A stretch of 64,000 nucleotides of DNA from an uncultured Candidatus Saccharibacteria bacterium. GTDB taxonomy: Bacteria; Patescibacteriota; Saccharimonadia; Saccharimonadales; UBA4665. Every line of letters begins with the position of its first letter. Positions within the stretch are counted from its first letter, which is position 1. This document shows positions 646 through 31,611 of the stretch, one piece after another. A model generated the notes under the pieces. That model was given only the letters and a program-made list of their open reading frames with translations, had not been told where the DNA came from and did no database searches. Made by a program: the position numbers and the translations under genes. The DNA lies in contig CAZHYW010000003.1 of assembly GCA_964537115.1 (NCBI GenBank), positions 26,087 through 90,086 on the forward strand. Direction: 5' to 3'.

Positions 646-2625
646 CTACAACAGAGCGGCCTTAATTCTCCGAATGCCAGCGCTGGACGATTCCTCTTTG
701 GTAATCTTGAAGCGTTTGCCGTCTTCGGCCAGCCGCATGGTGTGGTCCACGTGCGGGCCACCACAAATCTCAAAGCTAAATGGCTTGGTCGCGCCGTCGG
801 CAATCATTTTGTACACCTTCACGGTGTCGCCGTAACGGTCGCCAAAGGCACCCAGGGCACCCATTTCTTCGCGGGCCACTTTGGTGGGGTACTCTTGAAA
901 ACTCACCTTGAGGTCTTTTTGAATCTGCTCGTTCACAATGTCTTCCACCCGCTTAATCTGCTCAGGCGTCAGCTTATCTGGATGGCTAAAGTCGAACCGC
1001 AACCGCTCCTCGGTGATGTTCGACCCATGCTGAACCACGTGGTCGCCCAACACCTCGCGCAGCGCCTGGTACATCAGGTGTGTAGCCGTGTGGTACTTTT
1101 TGTGCTGCAAAGTCTGGCCACCCAAACCACCCTTAAACGTACCCTTCGCCGCCGTCTGGCTCCGTGCCCGCTGCTCAGCCATTTTGGCATCGAACTGTGC
1201 TTGCCAATCGGCGCTTAGCTCAATGCCACGCCTGAAAGCCTCTTCCACGCTCAGTTCCACCGGGAACCCATAGGTGTCGTACAGCGTAAACAAGTCCTCA
1301 CCGTGAGTCGTCATCTTGAGCGGAGCGCTAGCGGAGTCGAAAGATCCCGCCATGTTCACTTCGGGCTGACGAGATTCCTCGGCTTCACTCGGAATGACAC
1401 TACTGCCAAAAAGTCTGTCAAACTCTTTCAAGCCCTTACGAAGTGTCTGACGGAAGACCTTTTCTTCCTTCACGAGTACTTCCACGACCTTGTCACGGTT
1501 AGCTTTCACTTCAGGATAGTCGGCTTCATACATGTCAGCAATCACGGGTACCACCTGCTCCACAAAGTTCTGCTCCACACCCAGGTCAAAGGCAAACCGA
1601 ATCGCCCGGCGCATCAGCCGGCGCATGACATACCCCTGCTCTTTGTTACTCGGCACCACACCGTCCACCGCCAAAAAGGCTGCGCTGCGCAGGTGGTCGG
1701 CAATCACGCGCATAGAGTTGGTGTTAGCGTCGTAGCGTTTACCAGAGATTTGCTCCAGCTTCTCCACGATAGGCCACATGATGCTAATTTTGAACAGATC
1801 GGGCGTGTCGATAGCCGCCATAGCGATCCGCTCCAGCCCACCTCCAAAGTCGATGTTATTCTTTGGCAGCGGCTCAAAACCTGCTTCCCGCCGTACGTAT
1901 TGCATGAGCACATTGTTACCAATTTCTACAAACTGGCCGCAATCGCAGTTAGGGTGACACTTTGGCCCGTAAGCCGTATCGTGTGGTACACCATCAAACT
2001 TATAAAACAACTCAGTCGAGGGCCCGCCCGGCTCGCCAACGGGCATGTCTTCAATCTTGCCGTTCCGGCACCACCAGTTTGGCTTGCCGGTGTAGAAAAA
2101 TATGCGCTCACCCGGCTGCATGCCGCGTTCTGTCGCCTGTTTTTCACTGCCCAGATCAGCGCGCTTGGTCTCTATGCCTTTACCGGCAAACAGCTTGGCC
2201 CAAATGTCAGCGCTCTCGTTGTCCTTGGGGATGTGCCTATCGTCGTCACCCATAAAACAAGTTATATACAACTTGCTGGGGTCGAGCCCCACCACATCAG
2301 TGTAAAACTCGAAAATCCACGGCAGCTGCTCGGCTTTAAAGTAGTCACCCAGGCTCCAGTTACCCAGCATCTCAAAGAACGTGTCGTGACGGTTGTCGCC
2401 GACCTCCTCGATGTCTTGCGCACGCAGACATGTTTGGCTATCCACCAGCCGCACACCGTCTTGGTGTGGCTCACCCAGCAGATACGGAATGAGCGGCTGC
2501 ATGCCACTGCCCGTAAACAACGTAGTGGGGTCGTTTTGCGGCACCAGCAGCGCCCGCGGGATGCGCTTGTGGCCCCGCTCTTCAAAAAACTTTAGGTAAG
2601 CATTACGAATGTCTTGTGCATTCAT
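646..2625 (-). CDS. alaS: Alanine--tRNA ligase, short form lacking the C-terminal C-Ala/DHHA1 domain
   Basis: Class II AlaRS N-terminus (MNAQDIRNAYLKFFEERGHKRIP) and editing-domain motifs, ending shortly after ICGGPHV...GIRRIKA. I chose the ATG at 2625 rather than the upstream TTG at 2700. Confidence 0.95.
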   Translation of the reverse strand: MNAQDIRNAYLKFFEERGHKRIPRALLVPQNDPTTLFTGSGMQPLIPYLLGEPHQDGVRLVDSQTCLRAQDIEEVGDNRHDTFFEMLGNWSLGDYFKAEQLPWIFEFYTDVVGLDPSKLYITCFMGDDDRHIPKDNESADIWAKLFAGKGIETKRADLGSEKQATERGMQPGERIFFYTGKPNWWCRNGKIEDMPVGEPGGPSTELFYKFDGVPHDTAYGPKCHPNCDCGQFVEIGNNVLMQYVRREAGFEPLPKNNIDFGGGLERIAMAAIDTPDLFKISIMWPIVEKLEQISGKRYDANTNSMRVIADHLRSAAFLAVDGVVPSNKEQGYVMRRLMRRAIRFAFDLGVEQNFVEQVVPVIADMYEADYPEVKANRDKVVEVLVKEEKVFRQTLRKGLKEFDRLFGSSVIPSEAEESRQPEVNMAGSFDSASAPLKMTTHGEDLFTLYDTYGFPVELSVEEAFRRGIELSADWQAQFDAKMAEQRARSQTAAKGTFKGGLGGQTLQHKKYHTATHLMYQALREVLGDHVVQHGSNITEERLRFDFSHPDKLTPEQIKRVEDIVNEQIQKDLKVSFQEYPTKVAREEMGALGAFGDRYGDTVKVYKMIADGATKPFSFEICGGPHVDHTMRLAEDGKRFKITKEESSSAGIRRIKAALL

Positions 2626-2655
2626 GGTTTGCTTCTTGCCCTTTCCGTTGGTACT

Positions 2656-2800
2656 AAAAAACTCGTTCGTACCAAACACTTTAAAATTAGTGTTTAGCAA
2701 GAACGAGGCTTTCTCGTGTTACCATCTTGCTTTCGTCGCCATATCGCTATGGCCGACCTCGGCGACTGGCTCTTCTACCAGTCTCTCCATTTTACGGTCG
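2656..2800 (-). promoter_or_regulatory. T-box-like riboswitch leader of alaS (antiterminator/terminator switch)
   Basis: RNA-sense AGCAAGA-[UGGUAAC bulge]-ACGAG-AAAGC-CUCGU-UCUUGCU (2731-2696) has canonical T-box antiterminator geometry. The competing helix CUCGUUC (2707-2701)/GAACGAG (2668-2662) is followed by U6 (2661-2656). The upstream helix pair CGACC/GGUCG and GACUGG/CCAGUC leaves GCC (2763-2761) in an internal loop. Confidence 0.65.
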
Positions 2801-2870
2801 AGATTTCCGTCACTGCTTGGTCGCAGGCAGCTCCAGGGTGGCTTAGGCCCCTTCAATGCTTTATAGGTGT

Positions 2871-3221: not shown

Positions 3222-3662
3222 ATGAGAAAGCCAGCGAGCGTTTTGGTGGTGCATATAGCCCTGGCCATAACCGGAGTGATCCAGACTGCAACCGGCATGA
3301 TTTTAGTTTTTGGCCACAACAGCCCTCATTTTCTGACTACACAAATGTTCACTCCACTGCAAATTCTAGCCGTTGGCGTCGCCAGCTTATTACTGGCGAT
3401 TGGCTGTTTTGGTTTAATGCGCGCCATCAATGAGCGCACGGCATTCACACGCTTGCACGCTGGCTGCTTTGCGTTCGTAAGTTTTGTTTGTGGCATGGCA
3501 GGGCTGCTTTTTCTGAGCAGCGGTGAGCGCCCGGCCGCCATCGCCGCCATTGTAGTCAGCGTGTTCATACCGTTCATGCTACGCAACCAACAAGCCACCG
3601 AGTATTTTCGGGGGGTTCCTATCCCTCTTAGTCCCCCGCCAACCTTTAGGACGGACCTATAG
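3222..3662 (+). CDS. Hypothetical integral membrane protein (about 4 TM segments)
   Basis: 146-aa ORF with SD AAGGAGG 7 nt upstream and hydrophobic segments. Confidence 0.6.
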   Translation: MRKPASVLVVHIALAITGVIQTATGMILVFGHNSPHFLTTQMFTPLQILAVGVASLLLAIGCFGLMRAINERTAFTRLHAGCFAFVSFVCGMAGLLFLSSGERPAAIAAIVVSVFIPFMLRNQQATEYFRGVPIPLSPPPTFRTDL

Positions 3663-3671
3663 GTCCTGCTG

Positions 3672-4160
3672 CTACCGCACACTTTCTGCTAGTTTGTCGA
3701 GTGACTGGTTCCAGCCAGTTTCCATGTTGCTCATCTGCTCTCCAGCCGGAGCGCCATCATGGGTTAGCGTCAGCTTGGTTTTGCCGTCTGGTAGCGGCTC
3801 AAAATCAACCTGCACACGCATAACATCCGGTAGGTCTGTCATGCCGTAGGTGCTAGCCGGCACCATGTTGCCATCGGCGTCAGCAAAACTATCTAAACAC
3901 ACCAGTCGCTTCAGGGGCACAATTTCGTCGTAGGTACCGCCGCTCCAAAAATCCATGGCGGGCATGCCTGGACCAGGTTGGCCATGCATGCAAAACAAAT
4001 ATTTTCCCCCTACTTGCAGATCCACCCTTATAGTCGGCGCGGTAAAATCTTTGGGCCCCCACCATTTTTTAATCTGTTCTGGTTCGGTCCAAGCGGCCCA
4101 CACCTTCTCAACCGGCGCGTCGAGCACGCGAGTAATAACTAGTGGTTTTGTTTCGCTCAT
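3672..4160 (-). CDS. SRPBCC/AHSA1-family protein
   Basis: MSETKPLVITRVLDAPVEKVWAAWTEPEQIKKWWGP is typical of the Aha1/SRPBCC family. Its start overlaps the ArsR stop as ATGA. Confidence 0.8.
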   Translation of the reverse strand: MSETKPLVITRVLDAPVEKVWAAWTEPEQIKKWWGPKDFTAPTIRVDLQVGGKYLFCMHGQPGPGMPAMDFWSGGTYDEIVPLKRLVCLDSFADADGNMVPASTYGMTDLPDVMRVQVDFEPLPDGKTKLTLTHDGAPAGEQMSNMETGWNQSLDKLAESVR

Positions 4161-4483
4161 GATTCCTCCTTCAAAATTATTTCTAGACGGTCTAGGCGCT
4201 CGCTCCACATGCGCTCATATTGCTGGATGTATTTGGCTGCTTGCTCCATGGCCTCCGGCCGCAGTGTAACCAGGCGCTCCTTGCCGGCCTTACGTTTACG
4301 AATTAGCCGAGCCTGTTCCAGTATTTTCAAATGTTTGGAAATGGCTGCCAGCGACATGTTGTATGGTGCCGCTACCTCGCCGACATTTAGCTCCACACCT
4401 TGCAGGCGTGCCAATATATCCCGCCGTGTAGTGTCTGCCAGCGACCCGAACACCACATCAAGTTGTACTGCACGTTCAACCAT
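4157..4483 (-). CDS. ArsR/SmtB-family transcriptional regulator
   Basis: wHTH signature LADTTRRDILARL...VGEVAAPYNMSLAAISKHLKILEQARLI. The ArsR + SRPBCC pairing is common. Confidence 0.85.
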   Translation of the reverse strand: MVERAVQLDVVFGSLADTTRRDILARLQGVELNVGEVAAPYNMSLAAISKHLKILEQARLIRKRKAGKERLVTLRPEAMEQAAKYIQQYERMWSERLDRLEIILKEES

Positions 4484-4547: not shown

Positions 4548-5321
4548 CTAGCCTTCTGCCAGTTGCCAGTAATGCTCAAACACCTGACGCTGCAAGTTCG
4601 CAAAGCTTTTGTCGATTATCTCTACCCCTACCTTCTGGTTTGCGCGCCAGTGATATAGCGCGACAGTATCGTTATAAATAACCACTCCATGAGAAAGCGC
4701 TAATAGCTTGGGTGAGATAAGCCGCTTGGCAAATGATTGCTCTAAAAACGCAGTGTTTTCGGTAAAGTGCTCAGGCTTGCCACCCGGGTTAAGCAGTTCC
4801 CGCACTCGGTAGCCTGCTTGCACCGTTTTGGCTCGATGTTTCTCAGCCCAGCGGCGATCGCCCACTAAGTCTTCTATGGTCCCGCTACCCAGGACCAATG
4901 CCTCACCCTCGGTTTTGAGCTCATGCCATAGCATCTGTTTAAACCCTTCCGTACCATCATAAGTCTGGACTATGAATGAGCTGCGGTCACCCTGCCGCAT
5001 AGAATCGAGCACCGGCAGTAAGCCATCCAACGCTAGCCGCTGACCCTTCAAGTTTTCTTCTTGTGTTACCAGAGCTACCTCGAGCGTAGCCGGATCGGCC
5101 GCCACCAAAAAAGCGCCGCGGTCGTCTACTCGTTTGGTAATTAGACTGCGCTTCTCCAGTTCGCCCGCCAAACGGTAGACTTTGGTCCGATTAATACCCG
5201 TGGCCTGCGCTAGCTTTAGATGAGTACTCGGACCACGCAATAATTCCAGGTAAAGTTTAGCCTCATCACGCCGAAGCCCCAAAACTTGCAATTGTTCAAA
5301 CAAGGTGTCGCGTTTGTTCAT
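4548..5321 (-). CDS. TrmB-family transcriptional regulator (paralog 1)
   Basis: N-terminal wHTH LGLRRDEAKLYLELLRGPSTHLKLAQATGINRTKVYRLAGELEKRSLI plus a TrmB-like C-terminal domain. Confidence 0.8.
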   Translation of the reverse strand: MNKRDTLFEQLQVLGLRRDEAKLYLELLRGPSTHLKLAQATGINRTKVYRLAGELEKRSLITKRVDDRGAFLVAADPATLEVALVTQEENLKGQRLALDGLLPVLDSMRQGDRSSFIVQTYDGTEGFKQMLWHELKTEGEALVLGSGTIEDLVGDRRWAEKHRAKTVQAGYRVRELLNPGGKPEHFTENTAFLEQSFAKRLISPKLLALSHGVVIYNDTVALYHWRANQKVGVEIIDKSFANLQRQVFEHYWQLAEG

Positions 5322-24748: not shown

Positions 24749-24841
24749 CCCCCTGGAAATTGCTGTACTCATCTGTTATACTCGTCCTGTTCGCATTTAA
24801 TTTGGGGCTCCCAGCCGCAAAGCGACTTGAAGCCCTGGGAA

Positions 24842-24973
24842 AAGAGCAGCCGGACAAAATCTATTCGATTTTGCCCGCGCGATGATAGATGAACCGAAGG
24901 TAAATCTATATGCAGAGCCGGAGTATTTGTCTGTGCGAAGCTATATAAAAACCGTAGGTTTGTCTCATTACCC
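24842..24973 (+). repeat. Modular intergenic repeat, long form (copy A), directly upstream of tRNA-Ala
   Basis: AAGAGCAGCCGGA-[CAAAATC-TATTC-GATTTTG]-CCCGCGCGATG, followed by a 67-nt module that is near-identical to 31545-31611. Confidence 0.85.
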
Positions 24974-24978
24974 GACGC

Positions 24979-25055
24979 GGGGACGTAGCTCAGTTGATTA
25001 GAGCGCCTGCATGGCATGCAGGAGGTCGTGGGTTTGAATCCCGTCGTCTCCACCA
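24979..25055 (+). tRNA. tRNA-Ala(GGC), CCA encoded
   Basis: Cloverleaf folded by hand. Acceptor GGGGACG/CGTCTCC has G3:U70, the anticodon loop is AUGGCAU, the T-loop is TTTGAAT and the discriminator is A. Confidence 0.92.
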
Positions 25056-25095
25056 AAGAAAATACCGGTCACACTATGCGACCGGTATTTTCTTT
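25056..25095. terminator. Strong bidirectional terminator
   Basis: Perfect 16-bp stem AAAGAAAATACCGGTC/GACCGGTATTTTCTTT with a 9-nt loop and A/T runs on both sides. Confidence 0.85.
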
Positions 25096-25120
25096 GGTGT
25101 TTGGATAAAAGATCAGTGGG

Positions 25121-25458
25121 GTGGGTAAGTAGCGGGCGTCGGTGGTGGATGAGGTGGGTGGGGTTCGAGGTGGGACGCGCGGTGGACGCGGCTGCATGTT
25201 GCATATCGCTGCCGCGCCCACCAATCGTGCGTCCGGTTCTTGGCACTCGTCACCGAGCGACCAACTCCCCGGTAAACTGGTCGTCCCCCTCGCTGTAGGC
25301 GAGACGGTCGTTCCTCCGACTTCCAAAGAGGAAGCAGAGAGCACTGACGATAATGTACATGGGCCTCTCCCACTCGCCTAACGTGCGCCGAAACGCACGA
25401 GGTGTAACACGGAACGCTGGAGGCGTCCGCGGTGGTACGTGTGTAGCTACTTACCCGT
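25121..25458. ncRNA. Candidate structured RNA of unknown class (strand unresolved)
   Basis: About 335 nt, GC-rich, with only overlapping low-quality ORFs. An 11-bp perfect long-range helix pairs GGGTAAGTAGC (25123-25133) with GCTACTTACCC (25446-25456). There are several nested internal helices. Confidence 0.4.
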
Positions 25459-25562
25459 GCTTAAGACCAAGGCCTTAAACATATGTATTGTCCCACAAAA
25501 CCCTTAGATATGCAAACAATAAACGCTACCGCTTTGCCTGCGCGTCTCGTGTGCCCAAACGC

Positions 25563-25733
25563 TTACTCAGCTCGCTTCTCTTTGTGTTTCGTGCTTTCAA
25601 ACCCGTGGTGACGCTCGAAATGGTTGTGGTTGACCACGGCGGCTAGTTTGCGCGCCTCGTATTTGTGCGCCAGGCTGTGCGCCTTGCTCTCCCCTTTACG
25701 GTTCAAGTGTCGATTTTTCTCTGCCATTGACAT
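25563..25733 (-). CDS. Candidate 56-aa basic His/Lys-rich protein
   Basis: AAGGAGGG lies 11 nt before the ATG. Sequence: MSMAEKNRHLNRKGESKAHSLAHKYEARKLAAVVNHNHFERHHGFESTKHKEKRAE. Below the track cutoff. Confidence 0.45.
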   Translation of the reverse strand: MSMAEKNRHLNRKGESKAHSLAHKYEARKLAAVVNHNHFERHHGFESTKHKEKRAE

Positions 25734-30056: not shown

Positions 30057-30430
30057 TGGTGGAGCTGCCGGGTACTGCCCCCGGGTCCGTCGGCGTTTTC
30101 GCTAGTCGTCTACAGGCTTAGTCTGTTTTAAAAGTCTTAGCGCATGGGTATCGAAACATACAAACAGTCCATGCGAGCAATCCTGGTCTTAGCGGTCGGA
30201 TTGAATAGGTCCGTCCGAGCAATCAGAAATATAGAACGCTTATTCGCTATCTGATGTCGCAAAGGCGTTTCCGTGGCAACTAGGCTACGGAGAATGCGAG
30301 CTGAGGTGCCTTAAAGACACTAGCTACGCGGTTCCAAACTTTTGCAGTTATTGGATTTTGCCTATATCGCTGACAAGCGACCTGCTGATCTAGCGGTAAC
30401 GTACCAACGTCGAGCTTAAAATTCAGCCCC
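30057..30430 (-). ncRNA. ssrA: tmRNA (SsrA), 374 nt
   Basis: 5' GGGGCUGAAUUUUAAGCUCGACG... and 3' ...GGACCCGGGGGCAGUACCCGGCAGCUCCACCA. The acceptor carries G3:U70. Candidate tag frame: AKVWNRVASVFKAPQLAFSVA* (30345-30280). Confidence 0.85.
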
Positions 30431-30514
30431 TTGTCGTCGGTAATGGGACAAACCTACGGTTTTTCCCATCGCGCGGGGCGGCGAAATGAATTCGCCGTCT
30501 CCGGCTGCTCTTTT
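30431..30514 (-). repeat. Modular intergenic repeat, short form (copy 2), forming the tmRNA 5' leader
   Basis: 30467-30512 is identical to 593-638. Hairpin ATGGGA..AAACC-GTA-GGTTT..TCCCAT lies at 30443-30469. Confidence 0.85.
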
Positions 30515-30604
30515 CCCTTCGCCCGCGGCAAACCGCAAACCATTTGAAAATTAGAGCTACCTGGTACAGATGTGCATAAGGGTACAATACCCCTACAATC
30601 GCCT

Positions 30605-31432: not shown

Positions 31433-31478
31433 TCCCCTGATACTACCAAGTCCGGCGCTACTTTACTACTGGCCTGGA

Positions 31479-31611
31479 AAGAGCAGCCCGAGTCGGCGGA
31501 TTCATTCCGTTGGCCCCGCGCGTTAGCTCGAGCGAAGCGAGAGATATATGCAGAGCCGGAGTATTTGTCCGCGCGAAGCTATATGAGAGAACCTAGGTTC
31601 TCTCATTACCC
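31479..31611 (+). repeat. Modular intergenic repeat, long form (copy B), antisense to the flanking genes
   Basis: AAGAGCAGCCCGA-[CGGCGGA-TTCAT-TCCGTTG, paired via G-U]-GCCCCGCGCG..., then a module matching 24907-24973. It includes the perfect hairpin ATGAGAGAACC-TA-GGTTCTCTCAT (31583-31606). Confidence 0.85.

Follow-up and report, generated by a model that had tools for sequence, protein, structure and literature searches.

The hok mRNA, known from plasmid R1 and the E. coli chromosome, is a structured RNA of a few hundred nucleotides that encodes a small hydrophobic peptide, and its 5′ end pairs with its 3′ end through tac and fbi. The aapA mRNAs of Helicobacter pylori are about 250 nt long. 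The hok/Sok and aapA/IsoA type I systems share a hallmark, an untranslatable primary transcript in which the Shine–Dalgarno (SD) sequence is held by a distant anti-SD. The 5′ and 3′ parts of these mRNAs engage in a long-distance interaction, and trimming of the 3′ end activates translation (PMC6733600). In aapA, a CU-rich 3′ anti-SD sequesters the SD, a stable hairpin stands at the 5′ terminus, and truncation at the 3′ end is the activating step; CU-rich elements within such mRNAs mask the SD during transcription (PMC6733600). Homology is a poor guide to type I toxin–antitoxin loci, because their peptides and RNAs are short and diverge fast, and in the literature that we searched, no paper links such loci to Patescibacteria.

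Here, we analyse a stretch of 64,000 nucleotides, called the window, from a soil member of the Candidatus Saccharimonadales (Saccharibacteria, Patescibacteria), matched here to contig DATIHZ010000010.1 of assembly GCA_035480135.1. The window contains a GC-rich block beside a tRNA-Ala gene. We propose that the minus strand of this block encodes a type-I-toxin-like mRNA for a small peptide, with the SD locked by pairing to the mRNA’s own 3′ end. The block is read in this way because its predicted SD/anti-SD arrangement is that described for hok and aapA. We put the probability of this reading at about 0.45, a tentative figure, since only two copies are at hand and no antitoxin was found. The likeness to hok/Sok would comprise a structured mRNA of a few hundred nucleotides, a small hydrophobic peptide, pairing of the 5′ end with the 3′ end, a patchy and accessory distribution, and, by prediction, a distant anti-SD that keeps the RNA inert until it is trimmed. 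The block differs from hok/Sok in its host and in lacking similarity to hok in sequence or to Hok_Gef in Pfam. Its hydrophobic segment is also shorter, and no Sok-like antisense promoter was found. With aapA, the block would share the 5′–3′ interaction, the CU-rich 3′ anti-SD, the stable 5′ terminal hairpin and, as predicted here, activation by 3′ truncation. Its closed fold is longer, at about 335 nt, no IsoA-like antisense gene was found, and the peptides are unrelated, AapA1 being a basic peptide of 30 aa. If the proposal is true, these bacteria, which are ultrasmall and depend on a host, have membrane toxins under RNA control at a recombination hot spot, and a short hydrophobic ORF together with a closing helix and an SD/anti-SD helix would provide a fold-based signature for finding more loci.

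The Block and Its Surroundings

The block extends from 25121 to 25458 and is richer in GC than its surroundings, as noted in the preliminary description: 62.4% GC, against 52.3% for the window and 50–53% for the flanks. On one side lies the tRNA-Ala(GGC) gene, at 24979–25055 on the plus strand, followed by an intrinsic terminator at 25051–25099 that is predicted to act on either strand and to be common to the block and the convergent tRNA gene. The 23-nt arms of the terminator are 96% complementary; the bidirectional terminator reported earlier at 25056–25095 is thus present, with slightly wider limits, and its outer stem is kept in the homologous locus described below (p < 0.002). The other flank is a row of minus-strand genes encoding an RNase_T-like exonuclease, a DUF2267 protein, and a 56-aa protein, the last ending at 25563. 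The neighbours as a whole are PadR, DUF6496, a beta-lactamase-like protein, RNase_T, DUF2267, the 56-aa protein, a membrane protein of 206 aa, and a Mur ligase.

The preliminary description took the block for a candidate large structured RNA of unknown class, closed by an 11-bp long-range helix, and left the strand open. The two halves of the helix are there, GGGTAAGTAGC at 25123–25133 and its perfect complement at 25446–25456, and each is the sole copy in the window. Taken alone, the pair is at chance level: the window has eight perfect 11-bp inverted repeats with loops of 100–500 nt, against 6.9 ± 2.7 in shuffled sequences. Every one of the listed hairpins was recovered at its coordinates, and also in the minimum free energy (MFE) structure, as was the extended helix GGACGC..GCGTCC at about 25173–25234. 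A plus-strand tract said to be free of C for 40 nt is in fact 25 nt long (25141–25165), and the window has longer runs elsewhere. A scan of 25100–25480 against Rfam 15, which the preliminary description had suggested, gave no family at the gathering score, and at E ≤ 10, there were only meaningless matches to miRNA hairpins. The covariance models of RNase P, SRP, 6S, T-box, ROOL, GOLLD, raiA, HEARO, and group II intron RNAs had no match.

A Diverged Homologue in Another Saccharimonadales Genome

The sole clear homologue of the block, L002, is found at 4171–4494 of contig DATIIC010000014.1, from another Saccharimonadales genome, on the strand corresponding to the window’s minus strand. It lies beside tRNA-Ala in the same place and orientation as in the window, and its GC content is 62.5%. 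The proteins encoded by the flanking genes of the two genomes are only 39–88% identical.

The closing helix is conserved. Its 5′ strand on the minus strand, GGGUAAGUAGC at 25446–25456, is identical at 11 of 11 positions to L002 4171–4181. The 3′ strand, GCUACUUACCC at 25123–25133 of the window, is GCUGCUUACUC in L002, which differs by two transitions. In RNA from the strand equivalent to the window’s minus strand, both transitions are accommodated as G·U pairs; in RNA from the opposite strand they would be A·C mismatches. With G·U pairs included, the closing helix of L002 has 13–17 bp, against 11 bp in the window, and the spacing between its strands is 302 nt, against 312 nt. Estimated from k-mer probabilities, the chance of this combination in L002 is roughly 4 × 10⁻⁴.

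In 200 dinucleotide shuffles, the fold of the block has a z-score of −5.1 on the minus strand and −3.1 on the plus strand; the values for L002 are −6.4 on the equivalent strand and −3.6 on the opposite strand. For 158 windows of the same length taken across the 64 kb, the mean z is −0.36, with a standard deviation of 1.24 and a minimum of −4.6, so that the minus-strand block is beyond all 158. The most extreme of these background windows is the T-box leader that precedes an alaS-like gene, which indicates that the measure responds to genuine RNA structures of this genome. Judged by the z-scores of the two copies and by the G·U pairs of L002, the minus strand is the most likely one. The raw MFE of the window’s block counts against this choice: it is −149.8 on the minus strand and, at −156.5, a little lower on the plus strand.

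The interior of the block is another matter. Between the strands of the closing helix, the two copies are barely conserved in sequence (z = 2.6 for the global alignment), and tblastx finds no shared reading frame. The predicted folds are similar even so: with a fixed closing helix, the two MFE structures are 204 apart in tree-edit distance, against 262 ± 24 for shuffled interiors, of which 1 in 200 was as low. Covariance models of the 5′ domain (R1) and the 3′ domain (R2), each built from the window sequence alone, recover only the long GC-rich hairpin of L002, through R2, and a weak, correctly placed match in locus L014. Apart from that hairpin, the correspondences between elements of the two copies given below come from matching by eye and carry less weight.

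A Small ORF at Matching Positions

The sense strand of both copies was scanned for ORFs of at least 15 codons with a start codon preceded by an SD-like motif. Exactly one such ORF is present in each copy. In the window, GGGAGAGG-CCC-AUG begins an ORF that runs from 25360 to 25250 and encodes a peptide of 36 aa, MYIIVSALCFLFGSRRNDRLAYSEGDDQFTGELVAR; the earlier statement that the block has no convincing ORF is therefore wrong for the minus strand. The same ORF was called by an independent gene caller in the identical Logan contig L012. In L002, GGAGGA-UGCA-GUG begins an ORF for 26 aa, MKRLLAMLAGLAVLGGEFSPPVGCWD. In common numbering, the SD starts at 88 in the window and 87 in L002, and the start codon is at 99 and 97, respectively.

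Both peptides have a hydrophobic stretch at residues about 3–14, with a 12-residue Kyte–Doolittle mean of about 2.5. They are thus hydrophobic and shorter than 60 aa, as type I toxins are, with hydrophobic runs of only 13–14 residues. Known type I toxins typically have longer runs, of 17–20 residues. None of 2000 shuffles of the window’s block, and 9 of 2000 shuffles of the L002 copy, contained an SD-preceded ORF that reached both 25 aa in length and 2.4 in its 12-residue Kyte–Doolittle mean. In 508 kb of Saccharibacteria sequence, the natural rate of such ORFs is 4 × 10⁻⁵ to 2 × 10⁻⁴ per nt, depending on the threshold, from which the chance of a match in L002 within ±3 nt is 3 × 10⁻⁴ to 1.4 × 10⁻³. 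These figures are optimistic, as the thresholds were set after the data had been seen, though the margin is large. Five other spacers at the tRNA-Ala locus have no such ORF. Taken together, the minus-strand fold, the homologue, and the small ORF are real signals and show that the block is more than a chance arrangement.

Neither peptide matches a known toxin family of Pfam or NCBIfam (Hok_Gef, Ldr, TisB, Fst, Ibs, and others), and Pfam gives no match of any kind at E ≤ 10. The only NCBIfam match is a weak one of the L002 peptide to Phr_nterm (E = 0.28). The 36-aa sequence clusters with no other protein, and apart from the shared hydrophobic register, the two peptides cannot be aligned.

Proposed SD Lock

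In our reading, transcription of the minus strand would start near 25480 and proceed to the shared terminator near 25056, giving a transcript of about 425 nt, the mRNA for the 36-residue peptide with its hydrophobic N-terminus. The putative promoter consists of TTGCAT at 25515–25510, a 17-nt spacer ending in TGG, and GACAAT at 25492–25487. The preliminary description had identified this TTGCAT-17-GACAAT sequence with its TGn motif correctly, and its position is 25515–25487 rather than 25507–25479. A standard promoter scan passes over the site since its −35 element has only 3–4 matches of 6. The site is a weak candidate, and scanning L002 in the same way as the window gave no promoter; the upstream similarity of the two copies at this place is marginal (p about 0.05).

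The order of the parts is as follows. The 5′ UTR would contain the 5′ strand of the closing helix (25446–25456), followed by two hairpins of the MFE structure, H2 (CGCGGA.../...UCCGUG) at 25408–25431 and H3 (CGUGCGU-UUCG-GCGCACG) at 25382–25399. L002 has a hairpin with a GCGGA base at the place that matches H2, which was found by eye and is not detected by R1, and three of the pairs in its version of H3 are G·U. The two copies agree in the position where H3 ends, index 77. A purine-rich strand then starts at index 86–87 in both; in the window, it spans 25364–25378, includes the SD GGGAGAGG at 25364–25371, and is predicted to form the 5′ strand of a long-range helix with 25145–25154 (p 0.5–0.9). 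The ORF follows, with its ATG at 25360 and its TGA at 25250, and the stop codon would be in the loop of a UUGG-[stem]-CCAA hairpin at 25240–25264 that is followed by GA(A)C. In the L002 counterpart of this hairpin, the outer stem is conserved and the inner stem is fully different yet paired.

The 3′ UTR would contain the long GC-rich hairpin, GGACGC..GGUGGGCGCGGC / GCCGCGUCCACC..GCGUCC, at 25173–25234. The core of this hairpin, GCGGCAGC.../...GC(A/U)GCCGC, is the interior piece that R2 finds in L002. Downstream, at 25135–25172, is a CU-rich and G-poor tract, the candidate anti-SD, with CCUC at 25151–25154, UCCAC at 25145–25149, and CGCC at 25135–25138. The closing-helix 3′ strand at 25123–25133, the perfect complement of 25446–25456, completes the element. 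In both copies, the long GC-rich hairpin is followed by a CU-rich tract that adjoins the closing-helix 3′ strand.

In the full-length RNA, the 5′ UTR would pair with the 3′ end through the closing helix, 25446–25456 with 25123–25133, and directly inside this helix, the SD would pair with the CU-rich tract at 25145–25154. In the predicted ensemble, the GAGG of the window’s SD pairs with CCUC at 25151–25154 with a probability of about 0.9, and the SD of L002, GGAGGA, pairs with UCCUCC with a probability of 0.98–1.0. From the closing helix and the SD pairing together, the full-length mRNA is predicted to be stable but untranslatable. An SD sequestered in silico and a long-distance closing helix conserved in L002 are what would be expected of a type I toxin mRNA.

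By analogy with hok and aapA, trimming of about 35–40 nt from the 3′ end would remove both 3′ strands, freeing the SD so that a membrane-active peptide could be made; normally, an antisense RNA would neutralise the active form. In silico removal of the last 36–38 nt raises the unpaired probability of the SD to about 0.4–0.9 in the window and 0.3–0.99 in L002, except that one or two of the 5′ G residues of the SD take other partners after the deletion. The window’s ORF starts with a CU-rich stretch, reminiscent of the internal SD-masking elements of aapA (PMC6733600), and it is tempting to suggest that this run could mask the SD during transcription. Against the proposal, the closing helix of L002 is about 250 nt from the terminator.

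The Alternative of a Structured Non-Coding RNA

The first alternative is that the block encodes a lineage-restricted structured ncRNA of a new class that owes its action to its fold, for instance by serving as a scaffold for protein binding, the ORF and the SD-like tract being by-products of the composition of the helices. What the preliminary description proposed stands insofar as there is a stable fold with long-range closure and no Rfam family; as a new class of ncRNA, the case is weak, given the barely conserved interior, the syntenic relatives without the element, and the SD-preceded ORF at a matching position. The strong, strand-specific fold of both copies, the conserved closing helix, the several hairpins that have changed yet are still paired, and the missing frame in tblastx are all what an ncRNA would show. 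The block resembles ROOL, GOLLD, raiA, and RNase P RNAs in being GC-rich, with many hairpins and a terminal helix, and in its location, as ornate RNAs of the ROOL and GOLLD kind are often found beside tRNA genes. It differs from them in having no match to their models (E ≤ 10) and no conserved junction or loop nucleotides, and in containing an SD-preceded ORF.

The loops and junctions weigh against an ncRNA: with an interior z of 2.6 and a single hairpin recovered by R1 and R2, conservation is poorer than that of known large ncRNAs at the same divergence. About 20 syntenic relatives do without the element. Also, an ncRNA leaves unexplained why the two copies agree to within 2 nt in where they place an SD, a start codon, and a hydrophobic ORF. 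We therefore consider this alternative unlikely, and the locked small-peptide mRNA fits the block better than a ribozyme-like ncRNA does. Should the ORF prove spurious, the block would still be a rare, strongly folded RNA that belongs to no known family, of modest interest with two copies.

Distribution and the tRNA-Ala Site

The preliminary description recommended a search of homologous loci beside tRNA-Ala. The search was fruitful to the extent of the one diverged copy, L002, and showed the element to be absent from about 20 syntenic relatives. A genome scan by way of the Mur ligase gave 10 loci, and only L002 has the element. The genes for the exonuclease, DUF2267, and the 56-aa protein are syntenic with tRNA-Ala in many of these loci, and what separates the tRNA from the 56-aa gene differs greatly from locus to locus: only a terminator in L003, unrelated genes in L001, and a different, AT-rich palindrome in L004. 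Further contigs were reached through DUF2267 (that of the window plus eight homologues), a relative of the window’s 210-aa membrane protein, and a pair of SDR relatives; these contigs proved to be identical copies (L011 and L012) or loci lacking the element. A search with the membrane protein indicates that the database contains hardly any relatives of the window’s species.

An extra tRNA 3′ fragment is present in L002 at 4622–4633, and L039 has a split tRNA-like copy. These fragments mark the 3′ flank of tRNA-Ala as a recombination hot spot. The block in the window has no tRNA fragments inside it. Patchy occurrence at such a site fits an accessory module. Loci L014 and L017 have short motifs in common with the block, with no significant similarity, weak fold z-scores, and no ORF, and are possibly decayed or partial copies.

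These observations bear on a second alternative, in which the block is a decaying, foreign, GC-rich insert at the tRNA-Ala hot spot, such as a terminal piece of an integrative element or a MITE-like sequence with 11-bp terminal inverted repeats. The tRNA fragments of L002 and L039 and the different cargo of related genomes are in keeping with insertion, as are the GC content of the block, which exceeds that of the genome, the degenerate or partial look of L014 and L017, and the chance frequency of the 11-bp inverted repeat when taken alone. Against insertion, the block is present in a single copy in the 64 kb with no target-site duplication at its ends, and Pfam and tblastx reveal no protein remnants. 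Scans of viral and JGI metagenome collections with the pattern of the helix end pair gave chance matches only, and blastn against phage and plasmid collections found no relatives of the element. Neutral decay is further disfavoured because both genomes keep a GC content of 62% and, on the same strand, a fold z no higher than −5, though the proteins encoded by the flanking genes have diverged to 39–88% identity. We regard a decaying insert as improbable. The narrower identification as a MITE or insertion sequence was rejected on the single copy, the lack of an end duplication, and the chance-level pattern matches.

The Nature of the Peptide and the Antitoxin Question

A third alternative keeps the small gene and gives it another role: the ORF would encode a non-toxic small peptide, either secreted or placed in the membrane, the fold would serve stability or conditional translation, and there would be no antitoxin. 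The evidence from the ORF and the SD is the same as for the toxin. The L002 peptide, MKRLLAMLAGLAVLGG-EFSPPVGCWD, has an n-region and an h-region like those of a signal peptide, in line with its weak match to Phr_nterm, and the hydrophobic runs of both peptides are short for a transmembrane helix. That the search for an antitoxin came up empty also fits this alternative. The window’s peptide, in contrast, has no basic n-region, and the C-terminal parts of the two peptides share nothing. Moreover, to our knowledge, full occlusion of the SD by a 5′–3′ lock marks products that are not to be made co-transcriptionally (PMC6733600). A non-toxic peptide thus seems a rather remote prospect; it is a sub-variant that cannot be separated from the toxin reading.

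If the peptide is a toxin, an antitoxin RNA would be expected, and none was seen in the places searched. On the antisense (plus) strand of the window and L002, relaxed scans found no sigma-70-like promoter over the mRNA, although the consensus used may not be that of the host, and no Rfam antitoxin RNA matches the block. A plus-strand GATAAT at 25349–25354 has no −35 element, and nothing of it is conserved with L002. The element and tRNA-Ala converge on the bidirectional terminator in every copy, so antisense read-through from the tRNA promoter is possible; that such read-through serves as the antisense partner is pure speculation. The broader claim, that the locus is the first type-I-toxin-like module in Patescibacteria/Saccharibacteria, convergent with tRNA-Ala and lacking a usual antitoxin gene, whose antisense could be supplied by read-through, is accordingly put forward as doubtful.

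Identities Set Aside

Several other identities were considered and rejected. The plus strand has an ORF of 79 aa, which is not regarded as coding: it has no credible relative among 1.84 billion representatives and no Pfam match, and its single weak match (E = 1.9 × 10⁻⁴) is to a protein of 3926 aa. T-box, SRP, and 6S RNAs were dismissed as no Rfam match to them is present in the block, and a DGR was likewise considered and rejected. In retrons, the msr-msd RNA likewise has many hairpins, one of them long and close to the 3′ end, and is closed by terminal inverted repeats (a1/a2) of about 10 nt; a retron was set aside because the list of genes and Pfam domains has no reverse transcriptase gene on either side of the block and Rfam gives no retron match. 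As for RNase P RNA, the block does not have its signature. The archaeal RNase P RNA L023, one of the chance matches in the metagenome scan, has a P1 helix with the identical 11 bp, a coincidence that arises because the pattern of the end pair enriches for RNAs of about 330 nt closed by a helix.

The tRNA-Ala Locus as an Integration Site

The interval between the gene for the 56-aa protein and tRNA-Ala carries a different gene cargo in nearly all related genomes. Additional fragments of the tRNA-Ala 3′ end are found downstream of the intact gene in two loci, at positions 4622–4633 of L002, the Saccharimonadales locus with the sole clear homologue of the GC-rich block, and at 4015–4100 of L039, another of the loci compared. 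Such fragments are the signature of past integration at tRNA-Ala.

In a third locus, L014 (3610–3926 and 4008–4285), RidA-like pseudogene fragments adjoin a region that is possibly a degenerate copy of the window element. The region has the form GCUAAGUAAGC ... GCUGCUUAACC, with a matching GC hairpin and a fold z (folding energy relative to dinucleotide shuffles) of about −2; it contains no ORF, and a second copy of the tRNA-Ala terminator lies after it. The same spacer in L004, from another Saccharibacteria genome, holds a long imperfect palindrome (~290 nt, ~1990–2310) that differs from the window block and is richer in AT; no SD-preceded ORF is found in it.

A pattern scan for the two strands of the closing helix matched L023, a metagenome sequence in which an archaeal RNase P RNA (3472–3800, 193 bits) directly follows a 23S rRNA gene. 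The 11-bp P1 helix of this RNA is exactly the closing helix of the window block, an identity that we judge to be a coincidence, the product of the search pattern.

Other RNA Features of the Window

An upstream element of ~80–130 nt, GGAAAGAGCAGCCGGAG...CCCGCGCGATGA...TATATGCAGAGCCGGAGTATTTGTC..GCGAAGCTATAT-hairpin-CATTACC, occurs in four copies sharing this pattern: 24837–24972 (+), 30439–30517 (−), 31478–31610 (+), and 588–650 (−). Its end directly abuts the 5′ ends of tRNA-Ala and of tmRNA (30057–30430, minus strand; Rfam, 58.4 bits), with two further copies elsewhere in the window, and it may be a common promoter or leader of stable-RNA genes. The tmRNA gene and the tRNA-Ala locus are only 5 kb apart.

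A T-box leader (2696–2865, minus strand) lies upstream of an alaS-like ORF of 684 aa (646–2700, minus strand). The Rfam match scores 40.1 bits (E = 2e-7), below the gathering score of 93, and the fold-z scan gives this region the lowest value among the background windows (−4.6). The tRNA-Arg(TCT) at 54412–54502 (+) is called at 91 nt, ~15 nt above the usual length, possibly because it carries an insertion or because its extra arm is long.
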